Positions 7,806-41,940 of a stretch of DNA of 64,000 nucleotides are shown one piece after another. The translations under genes and the position numbers were made by a program. The notes beneath the pieces were generated by a model, which was not told the origin of the DNA, made no database searches, and worked only from the letters and a program-made list of their open reading frames with translations. Where the stretch lies: assembly GCA_942493375.1 (NCBI GenBank), contig OW818698.1, positions 1,813,455-1,877,454 on the forward strand, written 5' to 3'. This DNA is from Abditibacteriota bacterium (GTDB lineage Bacteria; Armatimonadota; UBA5829). Each line of letters begins with the position of its first letter. The first letter of the stretch is position 1.

Positions 7806-10800
7806 GTGAAATCCGCCCTGTACTCAGTAACCGTTGTCCTGTGCATCTTGGCCACTTGGCCCTTAGCCGCACTCGCTGAAGGCGATCCGGCGGCGCGCGA
7901 CTTGGCCGCGAGTATCCAAGTACCCTCCACAATCTTCCGCGATCAGGACCTGACGGGCATGATCGAAGTGACGAACAAAGGCGCGACGGACCGCCCCGGC
8001 GCAATCTACGTCAGGCTCAACAGCCGTAAGGGCTTCTCCAAGATCATCGACTCGCGGTTCCCCGGCAAGATGGGGGATACCGTGAAGTACCAGCTTGCCA
8101 TCCCAAGTTTCGACTTCGACGGCCTTGGAGGCAAGTTCGAAGTCTTCTATCGCGACCCAGAATTGCGCGACACCGTTCTCACGACGCAACCTCTCTCCGT
8201 GGTATACCAGCGGACACCCAGACCCGGCGAGAACATGCTCGCGAACGGCGGGTTTGAGTTGGTCAACAGGTTCTGCGGCACAACTCTTGGCGCTAGAGAC
8301 GCCGACATGAGATGGGGCAACCCGCGCTGGTGGACGGAGCTTCCCATCGATGGCTGGTGGGCTGAAGGGACGACCGCCAGAGGCATCAGCCTCGCATCGA
8401 GCGGACACACGGGCAGCCGATCCCTGCGGATAAGTGCGGCACGGGGCGCGGTGACCGTAGCTTCGTCATTCGGGCGGTACGTACCCGACGGCAAGGTGAC
8501 GCTGAGCGCCTGGGTGAAGACCAACGGCGCCAAAGGCGAACTGTTCCTAGACATGATCTCGGATTTAAACCTCGCGCGGCAGAGGAGAGCCGATGCCCGC
8601 AAGACCGCCTCGCTCCCTGAGAACTCCGACTGGACCCGAGTGTCCGTGACCCTGGACAATCCGAGCACGAATTCGGCAGTCGTCCGGATCAGCGTGGAGA
8701 AGGGCCTGGTGATGGTCGATGATGTCCAAGTGGAACTCAGCGGCAAACCCAACGCGTTCAACGTTCGCCCCGAGGAGTACCTCCGTCTGTCATTCGGCGA
8801 CGGTGATGGTTCCGTGATGCCAAAGTGGACAACCTCAGACATCGGAGAGCGGACCGTTCGCGTCTACAACGATTCTCGCGTCCCGCTTAAGGGCAAAGTG
8901 ATTCTGCAGTTCGGACCGTGGAACATACCGGCTCAGATGTTCATCGGGTCATTCGACATCTCCACGCTGCCTCCGGGCAAGTTCCAGGCGTTTCGGTTCT
9001 CTACTTCCGGTCTGCGGTCAGATGGATATGTGGTGACAGGCCGACTCCAGCAAGCGGCGACAGTCATCCATGACGGCCTGTGGGACTTCGACCCCTACGC
9101 GTTTACCGCATACCAACTCGGTAATATGCTCCATTCCCGAATCGCCGCCCGGTTCGCGCTTCTTCGCAAGATCGACCCAGAGAAGCTCTTCGGCATCGGC
9201 AACTCGACCCAGCAGAAGTTCTCGCTCGGTCTTGACAAGCCCTACATCGACTACTACCTCGAACAGAAGGAAATCGGGCTTACATGCACGCGTGGCGGCA
9301 GTGACGATAACGAGACCTTTATGCGCGCCGCAGCGGGCGGCCTGCCGGTCTATACCACGGAGCAATACGATGGCGCGCCCGCGGGCTTCAAGTTTACCAA
9401 CCCGTGCTCACCTGGTCGGCTGGATGTATACAGCATAGAAGGGCGCAAGTTGCTCAAGAAGCGCGGGGAAGAGGTTGGCCGAGACTTCGCGTCCAACCCG
9501 GCGGTTGTTGGTGTGCAGCTCGCGAACGAGCAGTTCTGGGCGAACGGCCCGATCCCCTGCCCGACCAAATCCGCCGATGACAACTTCCGGGCCTGGTGCA
9601 AGAAACGCCACGCGAGCCTGAAAGCCCTAAACCAACGCTGGAACACCAGCTACACAATCTGGGATCAAGTTACGCAGGTCGTCTCCGAACCATTCTACAA
9701 GAGCCTTATGGCAAGGAAAAAACGCGAGGGGGCTTCTGTCGATTGGGGTTGGATGAACTGGGCGCAGACCTGGCCGAAAGAGCCTGTCGACGAACTGGAC
9801 CGCATCCCCGGCAAGACGATGGACTGGCTGCGCTGGCGGACCCAGACCGGTGTGGAGGCGTACATGACCTTCATCAAGGCCGCCAAGAAGTACGACCACA
9901 AGACGCTCTACGGGACCGATCTACCCATCGACACGTTCGTAAAGCAGTTCGTGATTCCGTTCATCCGCGCAACCGACGCGGCTATGATAAACACCCGTTA
10001 CACCTCCGGTTACCCAGTCTCTTTCGGCACTCCGCATGAGAACATAGCCAACCTCGAACTCGCCGAGTCGGTAGCCGAAGGCAAGCCTTTCTGGGGAATC
10101 GAAATCTACGCCAAAGCCACGTGGCCCGCGGAATCGACCGCCCTCCAGAACTGGGGTCTGATCGCCCACGGGATGAGTGTGCCTCTCGTCTTCAGTTGGT
10201 ATCCGATGACCGATACCGGCACGCCGACCAAGGTCCTGGAATGGGAAGAACGGCTCAAGAAGGGAGGCAACATTTTCGGCTACGCAAGCTGGTATATGAT
10301 CGACGTAGACGGCGCGCGCCTGCCGATCTTCGACCCGTACGTGCGATCGCTGAGAGAGGTCAAGCGGTTCCACGAGACCTTCGACGGCACGACGATCCAT
10401 CGCGCAAAGACAGACATCGCCTACTATGTATCCAACGACACCTCCGAGCACGACCTTCTCATCACCAAGTACGCGCCCTGGGGAGCGATTCCCGAGCGGG
10501 TATCATTCAACCTGATCTACATGCTGCGCATGAACGGAATAGCGGCGGACTATGTGGACGATGCCAACCTTCCGAATGCCCCCGGCAAGTTCAAGACTGT
10601 GATCGTGCCCTTGGCGGATGTGCTCAGTCAGGCTGCCGCGACTAAGTTGGCATCGTTCGCAAAGAAGGGCGGGACCCTGGTACTCGTCGGCCTATCGGGA
10701 CAAATGGACCCTTGGCTGCGCAAGTACGGGCACATTGGCGGGCCGGCTTGGAGCGAACTAGGGTGGTACGCTCCGAACTACAATGAAGGTTTCCGCCCGT

Positions 10801-11417
10801 ACATTTTCGACCCCAACCTGGCCCTGCCTGACGGAGCGGCTCGCTCCGGTACCGACACCGCAGGCACACAGAATGAGCAGAGAGACGATTCACCCAACGA
10901 AGCCGCCGTATTTCGTGGAACGGCATTCGGCACAGTCGCCGGCGCTAAGGCCATACGGGACACGAAGGGCAACACGGTAGGGTGGACGCGTAAGTGGGGC
11001 AAGGGCAAACTGATCGCCTATGGCATCTGCCCGGACACATGGACCACGGACCCCCACCTCACACTCAATACGCAGGCATGGATGCAGCAGTTGATCGGTT
11101 TGGCGAGTCTCAGATACGCGGGTCGTTGGACCACAACGTCGGCAACGTCTCGTAAGGGCGTGAAGGTAGGAACAGGCATGCCTGCGGTGGATTTGGTGGT
11201 GAGAGAGAAGTCACCGAAGGAGAAGATCATTTTCGTACTTAATCAGGGCGGTGAAGGCGAAGGGGTGATCGAGATACCGGTACGGGCAGACGTGTGGCGT
11301 GCCGAGGACGCGATCGACCCGACGCAACCAATCACCGGGTCCATGGCCAGCGGCGTCTGGAAGACCCGTGTTACGCTTCCGCCACTGGGGTACAGAGTCA
11401 TAAGGCTACACAGATAA
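7806..11417 (+). CDS. Secreted GH42-like (beta-galactosidase-like) glycoside hydrolase with an N-terminal beta-sandwich/CBM-like region; G+C-rich gene
   Basis: GTG start preceded by GGAGG, then a signal peptide. A 'VGVQLANEQFW' TIM-barrel block is followed by a GH42-type trimerisation-like block 'KFKTVIVPLADVL...KGGTLVLVG'. The gene is conspicuously more G+C-rich (~60 %) than its neighbours. Confidence 0.5.
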   Translation: MKSALYSVTVVLCILATWPLAALAEGDPAARDLAASIQVPSTIFRDQDLTGMIEVTNKGATDRPGAIYVRLNSRKGFSKIIDSRFPGKMGDTVKYQLAIPSFDFDGLGGKFEVFYRDPELRDTVLTTQPLSVVYQRTPRPGENMLANGGFELVNRFCGTTLGARDADMRWGNPRWWTELPIDGWWAEGTTARGISLASSGHTGSRSLRISAARGAVTVASSFGRYVPDGKVTLSAWVKTNGAKGELFLDMISDLNLARQRRADARKTASLPENSDWTRVSVTLDNPSTNSAVVRISVEKGLVMVDDVQVELSGKPNAFNVRPEEYLRLSFGDGDGSVMPKWTTSDIGERTVRVYNDSRVPLKGKVILQFGPWNIPAQMFIGSFDISTLPPGKFQAFRFSTSGLRSDGYVVTGRLQQAATVIHDGLWDFDPYAFTAYQLGNMLHSRIAARFALLRKIDPEKLFGIGNSTQQKFSLGLDKPYIDYYLEQKEIGLTCTRGGSDDNETFMRAAAGGLPVYTTEQYDGAPAGFKFTNPCSPGRLDVYSIEGRKLLKKRGEEVGRDFASNPAVVGVQLANEQFWANGPIPCPTKSADDNFRAWCKKRHASLKALNQRWNTSYTIWDQVTQVVSEPFYKSLMARKKREGASVDWGWMNWAQTWPKEPVDELDRIPGKTMDWLRWRTQTGVEAYMTFIKAAKKYDHKTLYGTDLPIDTFVKQFVIPFIRATDAAMINTRYTSGYPVSFGTPHENIANLELAESVAEGKPFWGIEIYAKATWPAESTALQNWGLIAHGMSVPLVFSWYPMTDTGTPTKVLEWEERLKKGGNIFGYASWYMIDVDGARLPIFDPYVRSLREVKRFHETFDGTTIHRAKTDIAYYVSNDTSEHDLLITKYAPWGAIPERVSFNLIYMLRMNGIAADYVDDANLPNAPGKFKTVIVPLADVLSQAAATKLASFAKKGGTLVLVGLSGQMDPWLRKYGHIGGPAWSELGWYAPNYNEGFRPYIFDPNLALPDGAARSGTDTAGTQNEQRDDSPNEAAVFRGTAFGTVAGAKAIRDTKGNTVGWTRKWGKGKLIAYGICPDTWTTDPHLTLNTQAWMQQLIGLASLRYAGRWTTTSATSRKGVKVGTGMPAVDLVVREKSPKEKIIFVLNQGGEGEGVIEIPVRADVWRAEDAIDPTQPITGSMASGVWKTRVTLPPLGYRVIRLHR

Positions 11418-11759: not shown

Positions 11760-13088
11760 TTAGTAACACTGAAGCATAGTCCATACTTTGTCGAAATCAT
11801 GAGTTGCCAGTGCATCTTTTGGAATCCAGAAGTAGAGACGTCCGGAATCACCCCACATCATACCTATTCTCTCTTCTGTACCTATTTGCAGGAGTAACCG
11901 CCAGTCGGCAGCACGAACTCCCGGTGACGGATCGTTGTCACCGGAATCATTATCATGATGGAAACCTTGTGTCGCTAACTGACACTCCACTTGCATATCG
12001 TCCTGGACTATGTCCGGATTTCCCAATAATCGATGGGTAGAATGCAACTCGAAATACTCCACCAATGGCTGTGATATATTCTGATACGCTGACATCTCCT
12101 GAATGCTCATATCCAGCTTGAATACATCATGGGACTCACTTGCTGGAAAGCTGTCTTCCTGAGAAAAACTGACGCGGCAGTTACCAAACCTGGCTTCCTG
12201 CGGAAGGTTCCTGGGTGCTTTTCTCCGGACAATGCTAGTAAGGTCGCCGTTGAAATAGATCACCTTACAAGAACCCGCGTCAGCAGGATCACTACCCCAT
12301 GCATCCTGATATGCATCATAGAAAAAATACATCATACCATCGGTGGGTAGAAGATTATCTATATCATATTTCGCTACATCAGACATTCTGAACTGGGCAA
12401 TAAACGAGAGAGGATCTGTCCCCCATTTCGGCCAGGGAATATCTAGAGGCATATCAGGAAGTCCTCCCACTTTGGAAACGCCTAATTCCAGTTCCTCTTT
12501 TGTGGGTTCACAGTTGATAATGATGGAGCTGAGACAGAGTGCTAGCAGATCATCTTCGTATCTGGAAAGACCTGCCAAACGGAGAGCTTGAGCATACTCC
12601 TCCTTTGACATTTTTGGTCTCATCTCATCGTCAGGAAAAAGAATCTCGTTGTCATCGGCACATTCCTCAGGAGTCAGTGCCTGCAAATCATTTTCACTAC
12701 CGCTCTTCTGCTCTTCCCATTCTTCCAACCGCAATCTTGCAGCAAGAGTATACAAACTGTCTTCAGAACCTTTTGCATATTTCCGAAAAGTATCAACCGC
12801 TTTCATTTCAACAAATGTCTTCAGTAGATATACAGCTGCTGTTAATGCAACACTACCTGACTCATGATCCAGTAATTTAGCTAGCTCCTGCACACCTTCT
12901 TCTGATTCTCTGAGCTTATCTACAGCCTTTTCATAGCGCTTTTCCTGTTTCCTGATGTATTTTCTACCAAGAGATTCCCAAATACCTCTATCGTGCTCCA
13001 GCAAACCTTCCACAAATTCTTTACAATAGTATTCATAATCCTTAATCATCGCTGTGTTGCTCCTCAGATAAAGTAGGTAACTTTTCAT
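11760..13088 (-). CDS. DUF1963 (YwqG-family) domain protein with an N-terminal helical domain
   Basis: C-terminal blocks 'GGLPDMP...WP', 'LLLQIGTEE' and 'MMWGDSGRLYFWI' are typical of DUF1963. It is the last gene of the minus-strand operon. Confidence 0.5.
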   Translation of the reverse strand: MKSYLLYLRSNTAMIKDYEYYCKEFVEGLLEHDRGIWESLGRKYIRKQEKRYEKAVDKLRESEEGVQELAKLLDHESGSVALTAAVYLLKTFVEMKAVDTFRKYAKGSEDSLYTLAARLRLEEWEEQKSGSENDLQALTPEECADDNEILFPDDEMRPKMSKEEYAQALRLAGLSRYEDDLLALCLSSIIINCEPTKEELELGVSKVGGLPDMPLDIPWPKWGTDPLSFIAQFRMSDVAKYDIDNLLPTDGMMYFFYDAYQDAWGSDPADAGSCKVIYFNGDLTSIVRRKAPRNLPQEARFGNCRVSFSQEDSFPASESHDVFKLDMSIQEMSAYQNISQPLVEYFELHSTHRLLGNPDIVQDDMQVECQLATQGFHHDNDSGDNDPSPGVRAADWRLLLQIGTEERIGMMWGDSGRLYFWIPKDALATHDFDKVWTMLQCY

Positions 13089-13125
13089 TTCCTCGGAATA
13101 GTATTATGTATACTGCATTCTCATA

Positions 13126-14256
13126 TTAATCCAGCGTCACAACCGGTGACGTTCCGGTGGCAAGATATGCTATACGACGGGTATTGGGATCAAAAGCCAA
13201 TATGTATCCTGAAAGATGGAAAACTATAAAATCTCTCTGCATTATTGTAGGTGTATTAGCCATCCCGTATATTCCGTATCCAGCCAGACCGAAGGATTCG
13301 CTGTGACCATCCGGATATTCTACCCGCAACCCGGATTCATAGGGATAACCAGTGCTTGCTGTTAACTTCCGTTGTCCCTTTGGACGCAAATCTACAGCAT
13401 AATCATTAACTTTTTCCAATTTGCGTTCTCTTGGTTCGGAATCGGGACTTATCCAGTAGAGGTTTGATGTCTTTCGGGAGAAGGCTTTTGATACTATCTG
13501 CTCATCTCTGGTCTCTTTGAGCTCAACCCAAAGGTCCCATGCGTCACTCTTCGGCTGCTGCTTAATGAACAGAGCCCTTGGGTCAGCTTGAATGTTTGAG
13601 TTTACCACTTGATCACCTTTACCGCCCAGACCTACTTTGTGCACGAAACCATCTGAAGAGGATACGTAGTAAACATGCCCATTCATACCTTGGGTTAATG
13701 CAGAAGCATCAATTATGTGAGTCCTTGTAACGGCAGTAATATTGCCGACCAGTAGATAAAGCAACATAAGACCGGCATATGATACTGAGTTCACCAGCAC
13801 CGAAGCCTTTAACGAACCGTTCCACTTAAGATCACCAAGCAAAGTAGAATTGCGGATGGCAAGGTATATAAAAGGCAGTTCAATAAAAATCGTAAAGAGA
13901 TAGGCCAATATCCAATATATCGGTATACCGACTTTGGTGCCCACAAGAGGATTCGCCCATAGACCAGCAAAACGGTTCAATGGTTCCACATAATGCATAA
14001 TCAGGGCCCCAACAACAGCCGATACAAAATTAGCTGCAACCATAAGGCCAAAAATCCTGAAGGAAGCAAGACTGTATCGCTTACTCAGAATCTGAGCCTC
14101 AATTAAGGCGATACCGACATTGCCATATATAAGATGGAATACCCCAAGCCATATAAATGGGGTTCCCATATTAGCCCATGCAGCACTGGAAGCGGTGATG
14201 AGTAGAGCTACCAGCATAGTGAAATCAAATATTCTATTTTTTCGCATAAGTCGCAT
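13126..14256 (-). CDS. Integral membrane protein (about 5 N-terminal TM helices) with a C-terminal soluble domain
   Basis: Hydrophobic N-terminal half and a hydrophilic 200-aa C-terminal domain. It lies 24 nt downstream of the Hsp70-like gene. Confidence 0.55.
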   Translation of the reverse strand: MRLMRKNRIFDFTMLVALLITASSAAWANMGTPFIWLGVFHLIYGNVGIALIEAQILSKRYSLASFRIFGLMVAANFVSAVVGALIMHYVEPLNRFAGLWANPLVGTKVGIPIYWILAYLFTIFIELPFIYLAIRNSTLLGDLKWNGSLKASVLVNSVSYAGLMLLYLLVGNITAVTRTHIIDASALTQGMNGHVYYVSSSDGFVHKVGLGGKGDQVVNSNIQADPRALFIKQQPKSDAWDLWVELKETRDEQIVSKAFSRKTSNLYWISPDSEPRERKLEKVNDYAVDLRPKGQRKLTASTGYPYESGLRVEYPDGHSESFGLAGYGIYGMANTPTIMQRDFIVFHLSGYILAFDPNTRRIAYLATGTSPVVTLD

Positions 14257-14280
14257 CCTTTGACCAGTAGCTCGATCCTG

Positions 14281-15876
14281 CTACACCAGTTTCACGACAG
14301 GATAATCCTTATTCATGATCCGTCCCGTAGGTAAGTCTTTGACTGTTATGACCAGCCGCTTGTTTTCATCCAGGTTGAACTCTACTCCGAACCTGGGTTC
14401 TCCCTGTTTAGCTGGGGGGTCGGCTAACAGGAACGTGGGGTTGTGTTCATTCATCCAGAAGTGGGTCCTTCTCTGTTCCTCTTCAGATGAGACCGACACT
14501 ACCCTCGCAGCGCCGGTGGGGTCGAAGACTAATTCTACCGGGTTTTCATCCCCCCTCTTACGCTGCTCTCCCATTTCATATATCGCTATACCCAGTTGCT
14601 TCTGCTGATCAAATGAGGCTTTGATGGTCATTTTGGCGATTGGAGATACACTGGGATAAGATGTCCCACGCTTGACTATTGTCCTGTAGTCATACGCCCC
14701 TTTTTCACGGTTTACAAACTGGATTGCATAGTCGTGCTGGATATGGTCGAAAAAATCAACTCCGGCAACAAATGCAGCACCGCCACGCGCGACTGCATCC
14801 AGCGGTCTGTTCAAGTTTACTCGGTCTTTTCCGAATATACGTTGGACTGTGCGCTGGACGGATGGGATCATGCTGCTACCGCCGACCATCAACACGGATT
14901 TTATTGACTCCTCCGAATAGCCGCGCTCCCTTGCAGCATTCATTGCCCTGCGGATGACTGAGTCCATCGATGCAAATAAATCGTGCTGGTCTAGAATATC
15001 CTCGAAATTGTCTCTGCTAATACTCGCAGATATTGCAGCGCCGGTGGTTGGGTTGATTACACTTATATCCGCTTTCTCATTGAATGTAAGCCTTTCCTTG
15101 AGGCGTTCGCATTCTACAAGCAGCGACCGACTGATCTGCCTGACATCTTCATCCATATCACTGCGTCCATTTCTGCGCAGAATATCTTCGAATAGCCACT
15201 GGTCTATTACTGACCCACCGATGTCTATGCCTGCTTTACCCAGCACTCGACACCTGCGTCCGGCAGTCGCCTGGTCCTCTTCTTCAATCAGCACAATGGC
15301 CACATGCAGTGTGCCTCCACCAAAGTCCAGAACCAGATACACATCACCCGGTTGAATCTTAACACCATAACCCAGCGCAGCCGCTGAGGGTTCGTCGATC
15401 AACCTGAAACGTCTCATTCCAGCCTTTTCAGCTACACCGGTAAGCCAGTCTTCGTAATGCTCATATGAATCTACAGGGACAGTAAATGCGACCTCATCCT
15501 CTGCGGCATTTGTCTGGTTGACGGCAAATGCCAGCACAGCTGTCAGAAAATCACTCCCCGCATCACAGTAGGATATATCCTTGCCATCTATCTGGAACTT
15601 TGCAGGACTGCGGTGACAGATATAGCGTTTCATCCATCGAAAAGTGCGGGGTGATGCATCGTAAAGGTTCTGCTTAAGCACCTGGTCACCGTGCCAGCGT
15701 CGTTTATCTTCACTATAATGGATAAGAGAGGGAACCGTGGATATCTCCGCACCGGCAATGGAATAATAGTGCCCAAGGTCGGGAATATGCAGAGGAACAC
15801 CCTCCTGCAATGTCTCATCCCAGACCGCTACAACAGTATTACAAGTCCCAAAATCCACAGATAATCGTCCAGCCAT
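14281..15876 (-). CDS. Divergent Hsp70-family ATPase (Hsp70/actin-fold NBD, non-canonical C-terminal region)
   Basis: Phosphate-1 'VDFGTCNTVVAV', phosphate-2 'LVLDFGGGTLHVAIV' and adenosine motif 'LMVGGSSMIPSVQRTVQRIFG'. The C-terminal ~150 aa do not look like a DnaK substrate-binding domain. Confidence 0.7.
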   Translation of the reverse strand: MAGRLSVDFGTCNTVVAVWDETLQEGVPLHIPDLGHYYSIAGAEISTVPSLIHYSEDKRRWHGDQVLKQNLYDASPRTFRWMKRYICHRSPAKFQIDGKDISYCDAGSDFLTAVLAFAVNQTNAAEDEVAFTVPVDSYEHYEDWLTGVAEKAGMRRFRLIDEPSAAALGYGVKIQPGDVYLVLDFGGGTLHVAIVLIEEEDQATAGRRCRVLGKAGIDIGGSVIDQWLFEDILRRNGRSDMDEDVRQISRSLLVECERLKERLTFNEKADISVINPTTGAAISASISRDNFEDILDQHDLFASMDSVIRRAMNAARERGYSEESIKSVLMVGGSSMIPSVQRTVQRIFGKDRVNLNRPLDAVARGGAAFVAGVDFFDHIQHDYAIQFVNREKGAYDYRTIVKRGTSYPSVSPIAKMTIKASFDQQKQLGIAIYEMGEQRKRGDENPVELVFDPTGAARVVSVSSEEEQRRTHFWMNEHNPTFLLADPPAKQGEPRFGVEFNLDENKRLVITVKDLPTGRIMNKDYPVVKLV

Positions 15877-15879
15877 GCC

Positions 15880-16404
15880 CTACTCCTCAGCCTTCTCAAC
15901 GCCGGCTTTACGCAGGATTCGGTTGTTGTATGTCACGCTTGGAATCCTTACATACACATATTCACCCCGATTGATATAGACATCATTGCTGATGGGCTGA
16001 TGCAGGTCCGGATCATAGGCCTGCGTATTATCTGTCATTTCACTGACCTTGAAGCCTTCTGATTCCAGCGCTCTGATAAGACTGCCTGCAACAGCGATGA
16101 CATCCCTGGCCTGCACCGGTTTACCTGCTTCAACAAGATAAGCCTGAGTAGTCAACTGGGCAGCAGGCGCTGCTATGCTGTCAAAAAGCCTTTCCAACCT
16201 CGAATCCGTCACTGCAGATATACGCGAACTCTCACCACCGCGCATTGACTCTATATCCGACCTGAGCCTTGTGACAGTCTCAGCTCGCTCCTGGGATTCC
16301 ATCTGCAGACGCCTGATTTCACGCTGCATATCGGTATCGAGTTCATCATTGCGTTCAATCTTTACAGCGTCTTTTCCGAATATCTTATCTATCCAACTTG
16401 GCAT
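15880..16404 (-). CDS. GrpE-like nucleotide-exchange factor
   Basis: Coiled-coil N-terminal half. GrpE-like 'FDPDLHQ' and a C-terminal 'V..V...GY....RILRKAGV' beta-domain pattern. Its stop lies 3 nt from the Hsp70-like start. Confidence 0.6.
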   Translation of the reverse strand: MPSWIDKIFGKDAVKIERNDELDTDMQREIRRLQMESQERAETVTRLRSDIESMRGGESSRISAVTDSRLERLFDSIAAPAAQLTTQAYLVEAGKPVQARDVIAVAGSLIRALESEGFKVSEMTDNTQAYDPDLHQPISNDVYINRGEYVYVRIPSVTYNNRILRKAGVEKAEE

Positions 16405-16413
16405 ATAGTCCTC

Positions 16414-18627
16414 TCACCCTTCAATCTCTATATCGAACTCCCCGACCTGTATCGTGGCAGCTTCACCTATTTCGATGTCATAACGATACCGGTGGCGCAG
16501 CACGCACTGCAAAAATGCCAGTGCAGAACGGACATCCTCGGATAGCATCATCTCTTCAAGCAACTCAGCAATTGCAGTCAGATCATCATGAAAAGCCCTA
16601 CCGCAAGGACGGGACAAAAGTCCTGGGATGTCCAGCACGCGCAGGTCCCAGAGCGACATCCTGGACTGCGAATCCCCCAGGGCCATAAAAAATCCATCAG
16701 GAGAGACATGCAGTGAAGTTAAAGAGCCTCCAGGCAGGTCTATCTTCCCGATAAGCTGCTGGGTTTGTGTCGAAGTAAACCGCAGTTTTCCATCGGTGCT
16801 GGCTGAGATGATTACAGAATATCTGGATGGTATTGCCACTCCACACACCGGAGCTGGATGTGCACACAGCTTCTGAGGCACTATACGCTTCCCATTGGCG
16901 GAGTAATATTCGTAATCCACCAACTTCTCTCGCATATCTGCCAATATGTCCATACCGCTGGATGACTGAGCTTCAACAGATTTGTGCGCTTTACTGTATT
17001 CCAGCAGACTACAATACAACACCTGACCGCTCAGATATCCAGCCACTAGTTCATTATTGGCTGTTGAAAAGGCTGCACAACTCGAAACGCTGCTGGATGC
17101 CCAGGTACTGATTGAAAGGTCTTTTAAATCAGGTAGTGACACGACAAAACCACCTTTGACCACCAATGCAGCTCTGCCGGCATTGGTGGAAACACATGCA
17201 GTCCTCGGCCAGTCACGAAACCTTCGCTCAGCCACCATTTTCCGCTCCGGTATGCTCCACACCCGGCCATAATGATCTCGCCCCGTTGTCAAGAGCATCG
17301 AATTCCCAACCGGCTCCAGGGCTGTCAACGAACCTCTGTGAGTGCCGAGTTTCAACAACTCACCGTCAGCCCACGTGTAGACCGAACACTGATCAGAACC
17401 ATTAGTCCTCTCCGAACAGACCAGATCACTGCTCCCGGTAAAATTCACATTACCAATTGAGTGTTCAAATCCATTAATCAAAGCATACTGTTCGGCTTTT
17501 TGAAAATCCCACAGTGCCACTTTCCGATTACCACTCCCTATCGCAATTACAGGCTTGTTGGGAGAGAATGCAAGGTCGTTTATGCGGCCGGAAACATTTG
17601 CTGTAGCTCGTTGCAGTGCAGGTGGCAGTGCCCGGGTTATCTGATCCAACGATAAGATGATCTTGTCCGGGACAATTTCAGCCAACTGGTGATATGTCTG
17701 CTTGTCCAGTTCGTCTGCCGGAACCCAGTCTGCACGGATCAGGTGCTGCATAATCTGTATTCCCCAGCAGACCGAAAGCTCAAATACCAAAGGCCATAGC
17801 TTGGGCCACTCCCGGTTGTTCACCAGCATCTGGACCATCATCTCGGCTTCACTGTCGGACATCTCCACAGCGCGAGACCTATAATCCCCACCGACCACAA
17901 CAGTCAGGAAATCTGTTCTACCAGTTTTACGAAGCTTGTCTGTAATAGAATGGCGCAGTTTCGGTTCGGCAGACTCAAATACAGTCCTCAGCAGTCTTTG
18001 GTCAAAGTCCAGGGATTCATACTGCTCCCACTGCTCAGTCAGGAACAAAAATGCAGCACGCTGAGCAGCATCGTTAGGAAGATATCCACATTCAACTGCA
18101 ATCTCAAGTGCTGTTTGATTAGAATCATATATAGCTATCCGGCAGAGTTCATTTTTAGTGTCCTGCCTACCGAGAGTCCGCAGCATGTCATTTGCAGTAT
18201 TTGAAATAGTAAGATTTTTATCATCCAATGATTGGAGTAATGGATATATATGTTTTATACCAATAGACTTAAAAACATCCGTTCTGCCTTGCAATAGCGC
18301 AGTCTGAACGTTTAATTGCAACGGAGCGGATGCCACCCACTTTTGCTCATTAATGAGTTGCTCAAGAACAGGAATCCTGCGTTCTAACCATAGGTTACAA
18401 ATATCATTGATTCTTTTAGTAGCATCTACTTGTTTAAGGCGTTCATATGCTATGACACGAACGCGGGAATCAACATTGTCGATAAGAGCCTCTGTGAGTA
18501 TATTAAGTGCAACATTCCCACCATCGGATGCCAGTGCACGAGCTGCTCTGCGGCGTAACCATCCTCCGATTAGTGGAATAGTGTTCTTTAGAGACCATCG
18601 ATATCTTATTAGTTGGAATAAAGTCAA
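16414..18627 (-). CDS. HEAT/ARM-repeat + WD40 beta-propeller scaffold protein
   Basis: N-terminal helical repeats. WD-like repeats end 'VALWDFQ', 'RVWSIPE' and 'MSLWDLRV'. 737 aa, with a 9-nt gap to the GrpE-like gene. Confidence 0.55.
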   Translation of the reverse strand: MTLFQLIRYRWSLKNTIPLIGGWLRRRAARALASDGGNVALNILTEALIDNVDSRVRVIAYERLKQVDATKRINDICNLWLERRIPVLEQLINEQKWVASAPLQLNVQTALLQGRTDVFKSIGIKHIYPLLQSLDDKNLTISNTANDMLRTLGRQDTKNELCRIAIYDSNQTALEIAVECGYLPNDAAQRAAFLFLTEQWEQYESLDFDQRLLRTVFESAEPKLRHSITDKLRKTGRTDFLTVVVGGDYRSRAVEMSDSEAEMMVQMLVNNREWPKLWPLVFELSVCWGIQIMQHLIRADWVPADELDKQTYHQLAEIVPDKIILSLDQITRALPPALQRATANVSGRINDLAFSPNKPVIAIGSGNRKVALWDFQKAEQYALINGFEHSIGNVNFTGSSDLVCSERTNGSDQCSVYTWADGELLKLGTHRGSLTALEPVGNSMLLTTGRDHYGRVWSIPERKMVAERRFRDWPRTACVSTNAGRAALVVKGGFVVSLPDLKDLSISTWASSSVSSCAAFSTANNELVAGYLSGQVLYCSLLEYSKAHKSVEAQSSSGMDILADMREKLVDYEYYSANGKRIVPQKLCAHPAPVCGVAIPSRYSVIISASTDGKLRFTSTQTQQLIGKIDLPGGSLTSLHVSPDGFFMALGDSQSRMSLWDLRVLDIPGLLSRPCGRAFHDDLTAIAELLEEMMLSEDVRSALAFLQCVLRHRYRYDIEIGEAATIQVGEFDIEIEG

Positions 18628-18672
18628 TATTCGTTCCTATGGCAAAGAATTTGGGGGGCATCCCAAGAATCT

Positions 18673-18756
18673 GGCATTCTGAGGAACGAAGAATCTGCTT
18701 TTCCAATATATCTATGCTTAAGAACAGCAGATTCTTCACTGCGTTCAGAATGACAC
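18673..18756. repeat. Miniature inverted-repeat element, GTCATTCTGA family (full copy)
   Basis: Arms 'ggcattctgaggaacgaagaatctgct' and 'agcagattcttcactgcgttcagaatgac' around a ~30-bp spacer. Related copies occur at 27443, 31353, 41906, 44060 and 29569. Confidence 0.6.
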
Positions 18757-18780
18757 AATGACTGTCACTGTTAGGTATCC

Positions 18781-20316
18781 CTAAGACAATCCCCCATCAT
18801 GGAGTTCTATTTTTATTGGTACAAATTTTTCAACCGCATCCGAAGCTGCTTCAAATGATGCAGACTGCGCACGGCCCTCTTTCAACCAGTCCCTTAGCAT
18901 AGTTATTGACTCAGACTGGGAAACAGATAGCGGGACCTGGCGGCTGAGAGCCAGAAGGATGTCGTCCGTATTGAACTCCCTGTGTTCATTAAATGCCAGA
19001 TACATAGCCTCAATAATAGACTGCTCTATCTCAGCCCCAACATATCCCTCTGATGCCTTCGCGCACCGCTGGCAATCAAAATCCTGAGGGATCCTGTTGC
19101 GTTTGCGCAAGTGTACAGTGAAGATTTCCTGACGCTCCTCCAAAGTCGGCAGGTCAAGGAAGAAAACCTCATCGAACCGCCCCTTTCTCAGTAGCTCCGG
19201 AGGTATAGCCTGGATGTCATTGGCAGTTGCAACTACAAAACACGGAGCAGTCTTCTCCTGCATCCATGTCAGGACCGTCCCGAACACCCGGGTACTGGTC
19301 CCGCTATCATTTCCACCGCAGGCCAGTGTCTTTTCGATCTCATCAATCCATACGATACACGGGGCCACAGTCTCTGCAATTCTTAGAGCCCGCCTGGTTC
19401 GTTCCTCTGACTCACCGACCAGACTCCCAAACAGCGAACCAGCATCCAGTCTGAGCAAAGGCAGTCTCCACAATCCGCCGATCATCTTGGCTGTCAGGCT
19501 TTTTCCTGTCCCTGGAATCCCAATCAGTGCAATTCCCTTGGGTGCAGGCAACCCATAATCCCGGGCTTCCTGGGTAAACGCACGTTCCCGCAGCCTGAGC
19601 CATTCTTTGAGAACTCCCAAACCACCAACATCGTCCAGAGTCTCAGTTATGGAATAAAACTCCAGCGCCTCGCTCTCCCTGATGATCTGTTTCTTCTCCT
19701 GGGTAACAAGCTCAATATCGGTATCATCTAACTTGCCATCGCGGACGATTGCCTTAGCCAGTGTCCTCTGAGCCTGACTGGCGGAGAGACCTATCGCAGC
19801 CTGTAGCAATTTCTCACGTCCAAGAGCAGTCAACTGTAGTTTTAAACCAGGTGTCTGAGTCAGACGGTCCAGGACTGCGCTGAGTTCAGCCACATTAGGC
19901 AGAGGGAAATCAATTATTACCGTTTCATCTTTGAGCTCGGGTGGGATTTTTGCAGAAGGTGCCGTAATAAGTATGGACTTACGGGTAAATTTGAGTTTCT
20001 GAGCCACACTTCGCAGTTTGCGTTTTATGACAGCATTATCCCAGCACTCGTGGAAATCCTTGAGTATGACCAGAACATCCCCATCGAGTTTGTCGACCTG
20101 CTCCAGTGCGGATTTGGGATCTGCTGCAGAAGGAACCGAACATGAACCGGTAAGCAGATGGAACCCTTCGGCCACGTCCCACATCAAACACGGACGGCCC
20201 ATGCGGTCACAGGCACACTTGATTGTCTGCAGGACCCTCTCCTCCTCAGGTGACACCAGGACCATCAGTGTGAAACGTGCGCGCAAATATACATCGAAAT
20301 CCTGCTCAAAACTCAT
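18781..20316 (-). CDS. AAA+ ATPase (classical CDC48/FtsH-clade single AAA module) with a ~250-aa N-terminal domain
   Basis: Walker A 'GIPGTGKS', Walker B 'CIVWIDEIE' and a second region of homology 'VVATANDIQAIPPELLRKGRFD'. Confidence 0.8.
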   Translation of the reverse strand: MSFEQDFDVYLRARFTLMVLVSPEEERVLQTIKCACDRMGRPCLMWDVAEGFHLLTGSCSVPSAADPKSALEQVDKLDGDVLVILKDFHECWDNAVIKRKLRSVAQKLKFTRKSILITAPSAKIPPELKDETVIIDFPLPNVAELSAVLDRLTQTPGLKLQLTALGREKLLQAAIGLSASQAQRTLAKAIVRDGKLDDTDIELVTQEKKQIIRESEALEFYSITETLDDVGGLGVLKEWLRLRERAFTQEARDYGLPAPKGIALIGIPGTGKSLTAKMIGGLWRLPLLRLDAGSLFGSLVGESEERTRRALRIAETVAPCIVWIDEIEKTLACGGNDSGTSTRVFGTVLTWMQEKTAPCFVVATANDIQAIPPELLRKGRFDEVFFLDLPTLEERQEIFTVHLRKRNRIPQDFDCQRCAKASEGYVGAEIEQSIIEAMYLAFNEHREFNTDDILLALSRQVPLSVSQSESITMLRDWLKEGRAQSASFEAASDAVEKFVPIKIELHDGGLS

Positions 20317-20320
20317 TAGT

Positions 20321-20905
20321 TCATTCTCCAGTTATCTGTTTAAAATCGAGCGGGTCAATACCGGTGATCATTATCTGCCCATCATCAGATATTATCACTT
20401 CACCAGAAGGGATTATTGCCAGGTCATTTATACTATATCTATCAGTCAGGAAATGGACAGTCTGGTTAGTTGATCCTAACAACCCGGTTGATGAGCGTAA
20501 AGCTTGTTCATACCGTCCAGCAATCAGTACGTCCACACACGCCAGCAGCTCATCCGAATGCTGCATCCTCGATATCTCATCCCAGCTATATCCGGTAAAA
20601 AGCAGGATAGAGAGATCCGAATGTTTTTTGATATAGCCAAGGAAACAAGTCAACGCATCGATCTGTTCAAGAGGTTCACCACCACTTATGGTTATTCCCT
20701 CTATGGAATCACCAAACGAAATAACTCGATTACATAAGTAACTAACTGTAACACGTTCACCAGAATCAACCGGATGCGTTTCCGGATTGAAACAGCCAGG
20801 ACAATTGAGTGAGCACCCCTGTACCCAGATAACACACCGGCACCCGGGGCCGTTGGAATCACTCTGTGGAATGAAAGCATGCAGTTGCAGGTAGATTTCA
20901 TCCAC
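20321..20905 (-). CDS. Radical-SAM activating enzyme, NrdG/PflA-like (4Fe-4S single-cluster domain)
   Basis: 'VIWVQGCSLNCPGCFNPETH' is the CxxxCxxC variant typical of anaerobic RNR activases. A 'GGEPL' motif is present. 194 aa. Confidence 0.65.
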   Translation of the reverse strand: MDEIYLQLHAFIPQSDSNGPGCRCVIWVQGCSLNCPGCFNPETHPVDSGERVTVSYLCNRVISFGDSIEGITISGGEPLEQIDALTCFLGYIKKHSDLSILLFTGYSWDEISRMQHSDELLACVDVLIAGRYEQALRSSTGLLGSTNQTVHFLTDRYSINDLAIIPSGEVIISDDGQIMITGIDPLDFKQITGE

Positions 20906-20908
20906 AGA

Positions 20909-21115
20909 TCAGAACCCCTGCTTCTGCCAGTCCTGAACAGTTTCCTTTGCAGTGTCGAGAGCTTCAGCAGTCATCTCCCTTGATTCAACATCTCCCCCGA
21001 GAGCCTGCTCCAATTCAGCAGTGAGATCAAGGCAGGTTGTACCTTTAGCTCCATGCACCGCCACCCTGACCTGTCCATTTGGTTCGATTATGACTTCTAT
21101 TTCCTGTACGTCCAT
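20909..21115 (-). CDS. DUF2997-like small protein
   Basis: 68 aa. The pattern 'IEVIIEPNGQVRVAVHGAKGTTCLDLTAELEQALG' matches my memory of the DUF2997 family. It lies 4 nt from the radical-SAM gene. Confidence 0.45.
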   Translation of the reverse strand: MDVQEIEVIIEPNGQVRVAVHGAKGTTCLDLTAELEQALGGDVESREMTAEALDTAKETVQDWQKQGF

Positions 21116-21182
21116 TATGTCCTCACACTCAACTGTTTAGCGCGCATTATTCATGATTGACGCGCTTGGTAAATAAAGCGGG

Positions 21183-21617
21183 TTAGGCGGTTCTTCGCAG
21201 TACCAGCCGGATACGTTTATCACTATCCACATCTTCAGACACAAGAGAGAATCCCTGTTCTTCCAATTTGGCCATTGCTGCATGATAGGCATAGCGCTGG
21301 GCAACTTTCTTCGTAAAATCCACCTGACCCACGCCCTTAACACCCCACCAGTCAGCCACAATTTCGTATCCGTCATCTTGTTTCTTGAAACCTATGTCAT
21401 ATCCACCTTTTCCTGTAGATACTTGAATATCCACAGGGGTTCGTATCAAACCAAAAGTTCTGATTTTACCTTTTTCTACAGCAGTATAGCCAAGATCCTT
21501 AATTGCAGCTAATATGTATGCTTTCTGAACCATTCGTGTCTTTATTCGGGCAATATGAGACATTTCGCGCACCTCGATGCTAACTACCGATACAATAACG
21601 TATTTTCTATTCTGCAA
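21183..21617 (-). CDS. DUF1257 (Ycf35-like) family protein
   Basis: 144 aa. The architecture is typical of DUF1257 proteins, which pair with DUF2997 and AAA+ genes in cyanobacteria. It is the first gene of the minus-strand operon, with a divergent promoter region at 21618..21822. Confidence 0.45.
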   Translation of the reverse strand: MQNRKYVIVSVVSIEVREMSHIARIKTRMVQKAYILAAIKDLGYTAVEKGKIRTFGLIRTPVDIQVSTGKGGYDIGFKKQDDGYEIVADWWGVKGVGQVDFTKKVAQRYAYHAAMAKLEEQGFSLVSEDVDSDKRIRLVLRRTA

Positions 21618-21822
21618 CAGTAACTATTTCGCTAAAAGACAACTTGATACCTCCATGTGGTGAGTGAGAACGTTGCTATACATGTTCAATAGGACAATAT
21701 TGAACCGGATGTATCATCGAAACTTGCAGACTGTTTCAGGATATGGTATAACTCGAAAATCTTCATAGTCTATCCCAAGTGGATAATCCAAGCAAGGAAA
21801 TGCCTGAATAGGACGGTATATC

Positions 21823-23340
21823 ATGCAGCCTGCGACAAATGTCCATTTTCTGTTTTCATGTGTCGGTGTATGTGTGCTGGGACTCATTTTGTACAATAAT
21901 GTAGTCCAGGCAGCTGCCAAACCCCTGAAGGATATCCCAGACACTAAACCAGAAAGTAAAATACATTTCTATCCTGGACCCAATCTATTTGTTGACGATT
22001 ACCTGATAGCCTCAAGTAATGGACTGAAACGCACTACCCACCAGCCTGTAAAACTACTTGATCCGGTTATTCCAAAAGCTGAGGCCTGGCACTCCCGTCC
22101 GTTATTCTATGTCGATGTTCTATTCGATTCGGCAATGCAGCGTTATCGAATGTGGTACAATATCGGATTTAACAGCATAAAGCCACAATTTTGTTTTGCA
22201 TATGCGGAATCAGTAGATGGTATAAGGTGGACTAGACCTAACCTCGGACTGGTGGAGATAGATGGATCAAAGAATAACAACGTTATAAAAGCACCATTTG
22301 AACACGCTTCTTTGTTCTTCGTGGATGATGGTCCGAAGTGCAACAATCCCTCTCGCAGGTATAAAATGGCATTCACTGGTGATGGACTATGGGTAGCCTT
22401 TTCACCGGATGGTTACCACTTCACCGAATATCCCGGTAATCCTGTAATTCCAATGCACGCCAATACTGTACCAATTGGTCAACCGGACTACATTAACAAC
22501 ATTGGCGATATTGTAGATGGTTGCTGGGATCCTCTCAAGAAGGAATGCCTTATTGGTTGCAAGATTGAAAAGACGGGATTCCCAGGTAAACCAAGAAGGC
22601 ACTTTGAGGGTTATCGCAGGTGTGTAGGAATGACCACCAGCAAAGACTTCATCAACTGGTATAGACCCCGGTTGCTCTTTACTCCGGATCCTGCTAATGG
22701 AATGGAAGAATTCTACGGTTTCAAACCCATGATTAGAGGTAATCTGTATCTGGGATTTATGCGGGTCCTGCGAGATGATTTAGCTGCAGATAGTGTCAAT
22801 CCCCTGGATGGCATTGGCTGGACGGAGCTTATTACAAGCAGAGACGGTTTGAAATGGACACGTTATCAGGAGAAATTTCTGGATCGCAACCTCACTAATA
22901 GTACCTGGGATCACGCAATGGCGTGGTTTGGAGATTGCATAACTGTGAAGGACAAAGAGTTTATATACTACGGTGGCTACTCATCTGGACATAAAACAGG
23001 TGACCGACAGATCGGAATGGCGATGCTTAGAAAAAACGGTTTCGTATCTCGTGATGCCGGTAAAGAAAAAGCTTTGTTAAAAACACCTGTCGCTGTAATA
23101 CCAGGCTCTAATATGACAGTCAATGCAAACATCCACGGTGAAATGAAAATACGTATTGTGGACGTCAATGGTAATGCGTTGCACGGTTACGACTGGAACG
23201 ATAGTATCACCCTCCGTGGTGACTCAGTATCTCATCGCGTAAAATGGTATGGTAATCCAAAATTGCCAGATGGCCAACCTGTTAGCCTTGAGTTCAGCCT
23301 TCGGGATACTGAACTTTATGGATTCGATTTTACAAACTAA
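21823..23340 (+). CDS. Secreted beta-propeller glycoside-hydrolase-like protein (GH43/GH130-superfamily-like)
   Basis: Signal peptide. Repeated 'W..Y'/'DG' blade-like blocks ('RMWYNIGF', 'GDGLWVAFSPDGYHF'). 505 aa. Confidence 0.4.
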   Translation: MQPATNVHFLFSCVGVCVLGLILYNNVVQAAAKPLKDIPDTKPESKIHFYPGPNLFVDDYLIASSNGLKRTTHQPVKLLDPVIPKAEAWHSRPLFYVDVLFDSAMQRYRMWYNIGFNSIKPQFCFAYAESVDGIRWTRPNLGLVEIDGSKNNNVIKAPFEHASLFFVDDGPKCNNPSRRYKMAFTGDGLWVAFSPDGYHFTEYPGNPVIPMHANTVPIGQPDYINNIGDIVDGCWDPLKKECLIGCKIEKTGFPGKPRRHFEGYRRCVGMTTSKDFINWYRPRLLFTPDPANGMEEFYGFKPMIRGNLYLGFMRVLRDDLAADSVNPLDGIGWTELITSRDGLKWTRYQEKFLDRNLTNSTWDHAMAWFGDCITVKDKEFIYYGGYSSGHKTGDRQIGMAMLRKNGFVSRDAGKEKALLKTPVAVIPGSNMTVNANIHGEMKIRIVDVNGNALHGYDWNDSITLRGDSVSHRVKWYGNPKLPDGQPVSLEFSLRDTELYGFDFTN

Positions 23341-31430: not shown

Positions 31431-31493
31431 AGGTACGAAGGATGACATTATAAAAAAACTGGTCAAAGTGGACCAATGTATCCGGAGGTAAGT

Positions 31494-41905: not shown

Positions 41906-41940
41906 TGTCATTCTGAACGCAGTGAAGAATCTGCTTTTCC
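41906..41940. repeat. GTCATTCTGA-family half element
   Basis: 'tgtcattctgaacgcagtgaagaatctgcttttcc' matches the left arm of the 18673 copy. Confidence 0.5.

Follow-up and report, generated by a model that had tools for sequence, protein, structure and literature searches.

A horizontally spread seven-gene cluster encoding a predicted tandem AAA+ ATPase, a predicted lidless Hsp70 and a radical-SAM enzyme

Gene content of the locus

The stretch of DNA analysed here, referred to as the window, comprises 64,000 nucleotides (nt) of contig OW818698.1 from an Abditibacteriota bacterium. At positions 11760-21617 it carries nine co-directional minus-strand open reading frames (ORFs), all of which proved real in the ORF map, and which an initial annotation, made by a model from the sequence alone, had proposed as a candidate undescribed ATP-driven system. 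The shared direction of the nine genes is confirmed. The domain identities proposed for their products are likewise upheld by Pfam and NCBIfam profile searches, with a weak match for HEAT and a marginal one for GrpE. The conserved unit, however, contains only seven of these families and runs from 21563 to 14281 on the minus strand. Its products are two small proteins of the DUF1257 and DUF2997 families, a radical S-adenosylmethionine (rSAM) activase, an AAA+ ATPase, a protein joining HEAT-like repeats to a WD40 propeller (HEAT-WD40), a GrpE-like factor and an Hsp70-like protein (Table 1). This cluster is horizontally spread and is most likely a kind of AAA+/Hsp70 remodelling machine that is apparently undescribed.

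The layout required several corrections. The gaps between consecutive genes measure 67, 3, 4, 153, 9, 3, 33 and 37 nt, and thus do not all fall within the 3-24 nt previously given. The start of the DUF1257 gene, placed at 21617, was replaced by 21563; homologues of this protein are 125-127 amino acids (aa) long and the source-genome record gives 126 aa. For the shared divergent promoter put forward initially, which remains presumptive, the consensus scan gave a count of sites that is not above those of shuffled sequences. The same scan, terminators included, did no better than shuffles, and the operon boundaries are therefore unproven.

Table 1. Features of the cluster and of its immediate surroundings in the window.
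Feature	Position	Strand	Evidence or remark
Intergenic region, presumed promoter	21564..21822		Between cluster and divergent 505-aa ORF (21823-23340)
DUF1257/Ycf35-like small protein, 126 aa	21183..21563	-	Pfam E 8e-22
DUF2997 mini-protein, 68 aa	20909..21115	-	Pfam PF11211, E 5e-18
NrdG/PflA-type radical-SAM activase, 194 aa	20321..20905	-	Fer4_12 E 4.5e-35
Predicted Ycf46-family tandem AAA+ ATPase, 511 aa	18781..20316	-	Pfam AAA and AAA_lid_3
Palindromic miniature repeat	18673..18756		Within the 153-nt AAA/HEAT-WD40 spacer
HEAT-like repeats and WD40 propeller protein, 737 aa	16414..18627	-	WD40-propeller Pfam matches, weak HEAT_2
HEAT-WD40 C-terminal tail RHRYRYDIEIGEAATIQVGEFDIEIEG, candidate docking peptide	16417..16497	-	Motif in 77/88 HEAT-WD40 ORFs
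GrpE-like nucleotide-exchange factor (predicted), 174 aa	15880..16404	-	Pfam GrpE 26.0 bits vs cutoff 25.8
Predicted lidless Hsp70, 531 aa	14281..15876	-	Pfam HSP70 E 4e-33
Membrane protein of unannotated family, neighbour outside the conserved system	13126..14247	-	Absent from 80 related loci
DUF1963 (YwqG-like), neighbour outside the conserved system	11760..13088	-	Pfam PF09234, E 5e-45

Conservation of seven gene families across phyla

A scan of species-representative genomes returned 221 Hsp70-encoding loci, of which 80 were fetched, 40 of these with full flanks; many of the related loci are contigs of metagenome-assembled genomes (MAGs). The nine proteins of the window were compared by phmmer with the six-frame ORFs of the 80 fetched loci. 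These span about ten phyla and belong most often to the Chloroflexota, and also to the Cyanobacteriota, Planctomycetota, Verrucomicrobiota, Armatimonadota, Acidobacteriota, Bacteroidota, Desulfobacterota, Actinomycetota, Bacillota and others. Around the Hsp70 gene of the 40 full-flank loci, HEAT-WD40 was found 37 times, DUF1257 and DUF2997 36 times each, the AAA+ gene 32 times, rSAM 27 times and GrpE 20 times. The recurrent order is AAA – HEAT-WD40 – (GrpE) – Hsp70 – DUF1257 – DUF2997 – (rSAM) – (second HEAT-WD40). The order of the window itself, DUF1257-DUF2997-rSAM-AAA-HEAT-WD40-GrpE-Hsp70, occurs as well in locus L056 (Planctomycetota), in L074 and in L075, and without the AAA+ gene in L014. 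Among the relatives listed or fetched, identity across phyla amounts to 71-77% for the AAA+ protein and to 57-69% for the Hsp70-like protein, which has thousands of full-length relatives, those listed or fetched being ~530 aa long. The clustering of the seven genes is far beyond chance.

The two remaining genes do not share this conservation. Homologues of the membrane protein and of DUF1963 are present in 0 of the 40 full-flank loci and in 0 of the 80 fetched loci. The genes located downstream of Hsp70 vary, even among loci that share the gene order. The membrane and DUF1963 genes were consequently rejected as parts of the system; they may be co-transcribed neighbours. On the other side of the cluster, a homologue of the divergent 505-aa ORF was found in none of the related loci, and no other gene of the window recurs there as a conserved neighbour.

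A second, divergent DUF1257 paralogue was observed between the AAA+ and HEAT-WD40 genes of three loci (L005:5720-6139, L056:5847-6260 and L004:2511-2927). It occupies the same position as the 153-nt, repeat-bearing spacer of the window.

One explanation of such a locus would be that ordinary housekeeping paralogues of DnaK, GrpE, FtsH/Cdc48 and NrdG are adjacent by chance, since every protein shares a superfamily with a housekeeping counterpart. This explanation is refuted. The NCBIfam equivalog models are all missed widely except NrdG: the scores are 109 against a cutoff of 822.55 for DnaK (TIGR02350), 110.7 against 708.55 for HscA, 26.5 against 137 for GrpE, 100 against 600 for FtsH and 110 against 802.65 for CDC48 (TIGR01243). 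The initial annotation had itself named the absence of this gene order from other genomes as an argument against a system; the seven families recur in a conserved order across many phyla. Finally, the predicted lidless Hsp70 and the AAA+ protein with its predicted dead first domain are architectures distinct from those of the housekeeping proteins.

The Ycf46-type AAA+ ATPase

The AAA+ protein is 73% identical, over 99% coverage, to the 'hypothetical protein YCF46' of Stanieria NIES-3757, whose gene itself lies within a cluster of the same type, and JGI names the family of its relatives SpoVK/Ycf46/Vps4. Judged by the Stanieria protein and by this family name, it can be assigned to the Ycf46 family. 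Its motifs point to two ATPase domains in tandem, of which D1 is dead and D2 active. D1 (residues 1-~225, ~19642-20316) is a degenerate AAA domain with no P-loop, in which a conserved "EE-x-R" stands at the position where the P-loop is expected. D2 (residues ~250-460) displays the Walker A motif GIPGTGKS, the Walker B motif WIDEIE, a sensor 1, the ATAN motif and the Arg fingers RKGRFD, all conserved family-wide; in pore loop 1 it has the aliphatic SLVG. A membership of the CDC48 clade, as proposed at first, holds in part. The protein has the features of the classic clade, namely both Walker motifs, the two Arg fingers of a second region of homology and a lid, and its best PDB match is p97 D2 (E 1.6e-49). 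It does not, however, have the N domain of Cdc48, p97 or VAT: its N-terminal 230 aa form the degenerate AAA half in place of a double-ψ-barrel.

A few atypical relatives deserve mention. The long 'AAA' ORFs of L038 and L077 were considered as intein-containing and rejected, their extra length being merely an upstream open frame. An intein insertion in a Ycf46-like gene is possible for the homologue P0173 (655 aa), in which an intein domain (PF14890) is precomputed and whose alignment covers only 53% of the query. In a Phormidiaceae MAG, a 1216-aa ORF (L006:2099-5746) combines a D1-like region (residues 2-219) lacking D2 with a long HEAT array and an FDIEI tail, and could be a fusion of the Rosetta-stone type or else an artefact of deletion between adjacent genes.

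The Hsp70-like and GrpE-like proteins

The Hsp70-like protein had been described as a divergent nucleotide-binding domain. This domain is indeed complete, with all catalytic motifs kept, and D8, K83, E162, D184-x-GGGT and GG(S)S-IP are invariant in 24 orthologues. It is not, however, alone in the protein, where the linker and the β-subdomain of the substrate-binding domain (SBDβ) are kept and only the lid is lost. The last 156 aa match only Hsp70 SBDβ chains, on which the motif PPAKQGEPRFGVEFNLDENKRLVITVKD is aligned, and full-length PDB alignments extend to Hsc70 residue ~455-467, into SBDβ. The protein terminates ~10 residues past the last SBDβ strand, without helical lid or C-terminal tail. 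These alignments argue for a lidless Hsp70 and not for a bare nucleotide-binding domain. The reported lack of a DnaJ agrees with the Pfam searches, in which no J-domain protein was matched among the nine proteins or the window's further large ORFs; a partner encoded elsewhere in the genome is conceivable.

The GrpE-like protein passes the Pfam cutoff marginally and falls short of the NCBIfam one; its orthologue in Pseudanabaena is annotated as GrpE by RefSeq. Profile search detects the gene in 52 of the 80 loci, and its product can be regarded as a frequent but dispensable factor with a predicted exchange function. A fusion of GrpE to HEAT-WD40 in the loci where the gene is missing was considered and rejected: profile search and hhalign were both negative, and the extra length of these proteins consists of N-terminal HEAT repeats.

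DUF1257, DUF2997 and the radical-SAM enzyme

DUF1257 is the Ycf35 family. Its structure model, with a pLDDT score of 89, suggests an α+β interaction fold of the KA1/TBP-like kind that bears no signature of an enzyme. DUF2997, its usual neighbour, is a β-hairpin-plus-helix protein of 68 residues, in which G14, G22, G25, C28 and L29 are invariant in 58 orthologues; it matches phrog_23133, and no solved structural relative of it was found. In Synechocystis, the DUF2997-ycf35 pair adjoins fed7, which encodes a 4Fe-4S ferredoxin. The initial annotation described DUF1257 and DUF2997 beside an AAA+ ATPase as a recurrent stress-induced module of cyanobacteria. The Ycf46 and Ycf35 identities were recovered, but the presence of DUF1257 or DUF2997 within the stress operon slr0373-0374-0376 is unconfirmed, and in Synechocystis the pair is found next to fed7 instead.

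The rSAM protein has the motifs C31-x3-C35-x2-C38 (CX3CX2C) and SGGEP, which do not vary among 45 orthologues. Its best model is TIGR02491 (NrdG), where it reaches 116.2 bits and so stays below the equivalog threshold of 126.1, and its sole solved relatives are structures of the pyruvate formate-lyase (PFL) activase. Neither a glycyl-radical enzyme (NrdD, PFL or Gly_radical) nor an RVxG[FYW] motif was found in the cluster or elsewhere in the window, and no such enzyme is encoded by the conserved neighbours, in agreement with the earlier reading of an activase lacking its usual substrate. The rSAM gene is absent from every cyanobacterial locus, as would be expected if oxygenic phototrophs had lost an oxygen-labile step.

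The HEAT-WD40 proteins and their tail

The HEAT-WD40 protein is the variable, fast-evolving and often duplicated component of the cluster. Its HEAT_2 match is weak (23 bits for a cutoff of 27.7), its orthologues score from ~30 to 620 bits in phmmer, and two copies are present in 24 of the 40 full-flank loci, with up to five or six in tandem in L012. A feature common to both paralogue classes is an acidic-hydrophobic tail ("RFRFDIEI…GEFDIEI") with the motif R[FY]R[FY]DIE[IV]-x-E-x5-8-GE[FY]DIE[IL], detected in 77 of 88 ORFs of related loci. The Gly of GE[FY]DIE is kept in 63/66 tails when rSAM is present in the locus, against 4/10 where it is certainly absent (loci L003-L081, for example L060:14650-17217, L069:7424-8941 and L042:6296-8422). 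In the rSAM-less loci of Pseudanabaena, Prochloron and Moduliflexus, a Ser, Val or Thr stands in its place. This correlation rests on approximately three independent losses of rSAM. By its pattern of conservation, this Gly may mark the target of the radical-SAM enzyme.

These observations bear on a distinctly improbable explanation, in which the cluster would mature, activate or recycle a radical enzyme, or an Fe-S protein, whose gene lies elsewhere. The NrdG-like activase would be its catalytic centre, and the AAA+ protein, the Hsp70 and the small proteins would assist it as chaperones and adaptors by which the glycine-loop substrate is presented or unfolded. Such a role would fit an rSAM protein that falls in the glycyl-radical-activase clade and adjoins DUF2997 or the AAA+ gene in every arrangement, as it would fit the additional Fe-S partner beside the Synechocystis pair and the behaviour of the tail Gly. 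It is difficult to reconcile with the cyanobacteria, one phage and some plasmids, which keep the remaining module without rSAM, and with the lack of a glycyl-radical enzyme or motif in the cluster and the window. The small number of losses behind the Gly correlation also counts against it, as do plasmid cores in which rSAM is present but HEAT-WD40 is not.

A smaller core on plasmids and phages

Mobile relatives of the cluster were sought by tblastn of the AAA+ protein against plasmids and phages. The whole system is carried by the plasmid pPg_01 of Pseudanabaena galeata. Smaller sets are found elsewhere: AAA+, DUF1257 and DUF2997 without rSAM on plasmids of Geminocystis and Planktothrix; AAA…DUF1257-DUF2997, again without rSAM, in the Rhizobium phage RHph_I4; AAA-DUF1257-DUF2997-rSAM on pPPM1a of Paenibacillus polymyxa; and core variants with a helix-hairpin-helix protein on plasmids of Rhodococcus and B. 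cereus. The Geminocystis trio is surrounded by RloB, zeta-toxin, DUF4007, HNH and PAPS-reductase genes. Full-length AAA+ homologues were also detected in mycobacteriophages, and PHROGs families of no assigned function match AAA+ (phrog_8638, E 5e-148), DUF1257 and DUF2997. AAA+, DUF1257 and DUF2997, with or without rSAM, constitute an older core, and the cluster of the window is therefore this core plus an Hsp70/GrpE/HEAT-WD40 extension.

One further arrangement involves the plasmid pTRESU01 of Treponema succinifaciens (L084, 6333-8494). In this case, rSAM lies directly upstream of a full-length AAA+ gene whose product is 42% identical to that of the window, and the pair is located inside a contractile-injection locus, where VgrG/Pvc8 and baseplate V genes surround it. 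This suggests that the rSAM–AAA pair can serve contractile injection machines. Extended to the whole cluster, the idea would be that of a chaperone for the assembly or cargo loading of a large apparatus, comparable to Pvc15/Afp15, or of a helper of phage morphogenesis. The homologues in mycobacteriophages and in the Rhizobium phage speak for such a role, together with the PHROGs match and the precedent of Pvc15, a cargo loader in which a deviant D1 also precedes an active D2 (PMC11495950). This remains highly improbable for the cluster studied here: contractile-injection genes (sheath, tube, baseplate, VgrG) occur only in the Treponema plasmid locus, and neither they nor secretion or virion structural genes are conserved beside the cluster, be it in the window or as recurrent neighbours in the 80 loci.

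In cyanobacterial clusters, toxin-antitoxin genes (HTH_37, DUF559, PIN, RelE) and a pair of AAA_21/AAA_15 Abi-like ATPase genes were observed as insertions (L001/L009 8461-9768; L082 16443-17369; L089 3576-5520 and 8149-9722). The genes of the cluster are left intact by them.

Neighbouring genes and setting of the window

The membrane protein probably starts at the fourth codon of its ORF, because an 86%-identical relative begins at query residue 4; the coordinates of Table 1 follow from this choice. No match to it was obtained in Pfam, NCBIfam, PADLOC or PHROGs. Its homologues fall into 881 representative clusters of similar length, 519 of them at E<=1e-10, and by this count it belongs to what appears to be a sizeable uncharacterised family. 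Overall G+C content (GC) and that of third codon positions (GC3), calculated per gene, do not clearly set the membrane and DUF1963 genes apart from the other seven.

The miniature repeat that the initial annotation placed between the AAA+ and HEAT-WD40 genes is a real hairpin (~84 nt, -42 kcal/mol, z -3.3). It is a dispersed element and does not belong to the conserved system. A second copy is present at 41909-41936, the 28-nt arm showing 1 mismatch between copies for a chance expectation of 0 matches, and both copies sit in intergenic spacers of the window. The palindrome looks like a dispersed element of the repetitive extragenic palindromic (REP) or miniature inverted-repeat transposable element (MITE) type.

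The cluster lies in a chromosomal region of carbohydrate use and not in a defence island. The housekeeping genes of the window include rho, cmk, an aroF-type DAHP synthase gene and tyrA, and an IS110 transposase gene is located at 292-1581. Three paralogous GHL6/alpha-fucosidase-like proteins (41963-44002, 52296-54299 and 54412-56397) are encoded along with other glycoside-hydrolase-like genes. A GH42-like ORF of 1203 aa (7806-11417) may have been acquired horizontally; the stretch that contains it has a GC of 56-60%, compared with 47% for the window. The overlapping ORFs 31476-32519 and 32368-33732 match the N- and C-terminal halves of DUF4838, which suggests a frameshifted or split glycoside-hydrolase-like gene.

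Proposed function of the cluster

Taken together, these data are best explained by a mobile seven-gene module that encodes a dedicated protein-remodelling machine, in which two ATP-driven motors are coupled via adaptors. A probability of roughly 0.45 is assigned to this reading. The most likely role would be stress-type or client-specific proteostasis and, if this role is true, the cluster represents a new type of client-specific bi-chaperone machine. The HEAT-WD40 proteins would be the receptors that choose a specific client or ligand, and their tail would provide the docking to either the substrate-binding domain of Hsp70 or the AAA+ ring. With GrpE recycling it, the Hsp70 would capture the client and pass it to the Ycf46 hexamer. 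There, the D1 ring would have a structural role and the D2 ring would be the motor by which the client is remodelled or disassembled. No protease is encoded by the cluster, so that remodelling is expected rather than degradation. DUF1257 and DUF2997, the most constant companions of the AAA+ protein, would be its small adaptor or regulatory subunits. The activase would equip a partner, for which DUF2997 or the AAA+ complex are the best candidates, with a radical modification or switch that is sensitive to oxygen, and oxygenic cyanobacteria would have dropped this radical step.

Several points weigh against this proposal. All of its functional steps are deduced from domains and synteny. The pore loop 1 of D2 is aliphatic and not aromatic, which makes processive unfolding uncertain. 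The cluster encodes no J-domain partner to trigger the ATPase of Hsp70, and about one locus in three is without GrpE. No residue of AAA+, Hsp70, DUF1257 or DUF2997 was found to track the presence of rSAM. Moreover, the patchy spread, the plasmid and phage carriage and the duplicated repeat 'receptors' suit a conflict system at least equally.

Such a conflict system, anti-phage, anti-plasmid or acting in the counter-defence of mobile genetic elements, is the main rival explanation and is considered possible, if somewhat unlikely. HEAT-WD40 would then sense an invader protein, Hsp70 and AAA+ would form the nucleoside-triphosphate-dependent part, be it a threshold, a switch or an effector that might, for instance, unfold a protein essential to the host or phage, and rSAM would arm or modify a component. 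In its favor, the distribution is patchy and resembles that left by horizontal gene transfer despite an identity of 60-77% across phyla, and HEAT-WD40 is multiplied in tandem. The complete Pseudanabaena plasmid copy, the RloB and zeta-toxin neighbours of the Geminocystis trio and the defence-like genes inserted inside cyanobacterial clusters point in the same direction. The domain set also resembles that of CoCoNuT type III (PMC11090510) and of Hsp70/GrpE-bearing GTPase-centric systems (PMC7159879). The PADLOC result counts both ways: its weak matches, generic AAA ones to IetA without IetS and one to PDC-M61B (E 5e-7), leave seven proteins unmatched and amount to no match at the level of a system. 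Further arguments oppose immunity. The conserved set contains no recognisable effector (nuclease, protease, pore-former or NADase), and the conservation of its core proteins is higher than is usual in immune systems. In the window as on the Stanieria chromosome, the cluster has housekeeping or carbohydrate genes around it. A phage-encoded core and the plastid Ycf46 and Ycf35 genes fit anti-phage immunity poorly. If the immune role were nevertheless true, the cluster would be a new architecture without classical effector.

A bolder version of the remodelling hypothesis gives the radical enzyme a regulatory role. A radical mark on DUF2997 or on the Gly tail of HEAT-WD40 would gate the ATP-driven remodelling of the client, in an immune or conflict device or in an oxygen-sensing switch that would define an undescribed class of multi-ATPase systems. 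This version is regarded as unlikely. If true, it would offer the first mechanistic context for ycf46 and ycf35, long orphans of plastids and cyanobacteria. It is equally doubtful that the coupling to a radical-SAM enzyme makes the cluster something categorically new, even if it is possibly the first link of radical-SAM chemistry to AAA+/Hsp70 remodelling. These proposals lead to testable hypotheses on binding partners, on protein radical formation and on the ligands of the WD40 receptors.

Comparison with known systems

The initial annotation could place the cluster in no described pathway. This agrees with the PADLOC result and with the searchable literature: queries on DUF1257/DUF2997, on ycf46/ycf35 with Hsp70, GrpE or WD40 and on defence clusters with Hsp70-like, AAA+ and WD40 proteins returned no description of it, within an incomplete coverage. 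Its parts can nevertheless be compared with known systems. The rSAM protein has the same CX3CX2C and GGE motifs as the NrdG and PflA activases. It differs from them by its score below the NrdG cutoff, by its constant neighbours DUF2997 and AAA+ and by the absence of a glycyl-radical enzyme nearby.

In Pvc15, the deviant D1 is thought to have no ATPase activity, D2 is active and the protein functions in cargo loading (PMC11495950). A similar layout is predicted for the AAA+ protein of the cluster, and an AAA homologue lies in the injection locus of Treponema. Pvc15, however, possesses an extra N domain, and the genes of an injection system are absent near the cluster of the window and its 80 relatives.

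CoCoNuT type III systems combine an Hsp70-like protein with nucleotide- and substrate-binding domains (CnuD), HEAT-like repeats and tandem SpoVK/Cdc48-like AAA domains of which the N-terminal ATPase is inactive (PMC11090510). In contrast, neither the McrB GTPase nor McrC/DUF2357 is detected by Pfam in the cluster or its neighbours, where HEPN and cold-shock domains are missing too. Moreover, the Hsp70-like domains of CoCoNuT are catalytically degenerate, whereas the Hsp70 of the cluster keeps all motifs.

The cooperation of ClpB with DnaK is well established. As with DnaK-DnaJ-GrpE and ClpB/Hsp104, the cluster encodes together an Hsp70, a GrpE-type factor and a hexameric-type AAA+ protein, and by analogy with ClpB-DnaK the hand-over of a client from Hsp70 to AAA+ would be the obvious working model. 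The cluster departs from this bi-chaperone system by the lack of a J-domain protein, of the Hsp70 lid and of the ClpB M-domain. Its AAA+ protein falls in the classic clade (Cdc48/Vps4/FtsH) and has a predicted dead D1 and an aliphatic pore loop, and repeat proteins as candidate receptors and an rSAM enzyme are added.

A further comparison concerns photosynthetic lineages. The Ycf46, Ycf35 and DUF2997 proteins of cyanobacteria and red-lineage plastids belong to the same AAA+ and DUF families as those of the cluster, and conservation of Ycf46 and Ycf35 extends over the cyanobacteria and many plastid genomes of algae. Few operons of model cyanobacteria are induced by stress as strongly as that of ycf46, to which no biochemical function is assigned in the literature searched (PMC7496141; bioRxiv 10.1101/2025.07.21.665879). 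In this literature, the proteins appear either as isolated 'hypothetical chloroplast ORFs' or within a three-gene stress operon. The cluster described here adds to them Hsp70 and GrpE, HEAT-WD40 and rSAM, and it occurs in non-photosynthetic phyla, on plasmids and in phage.

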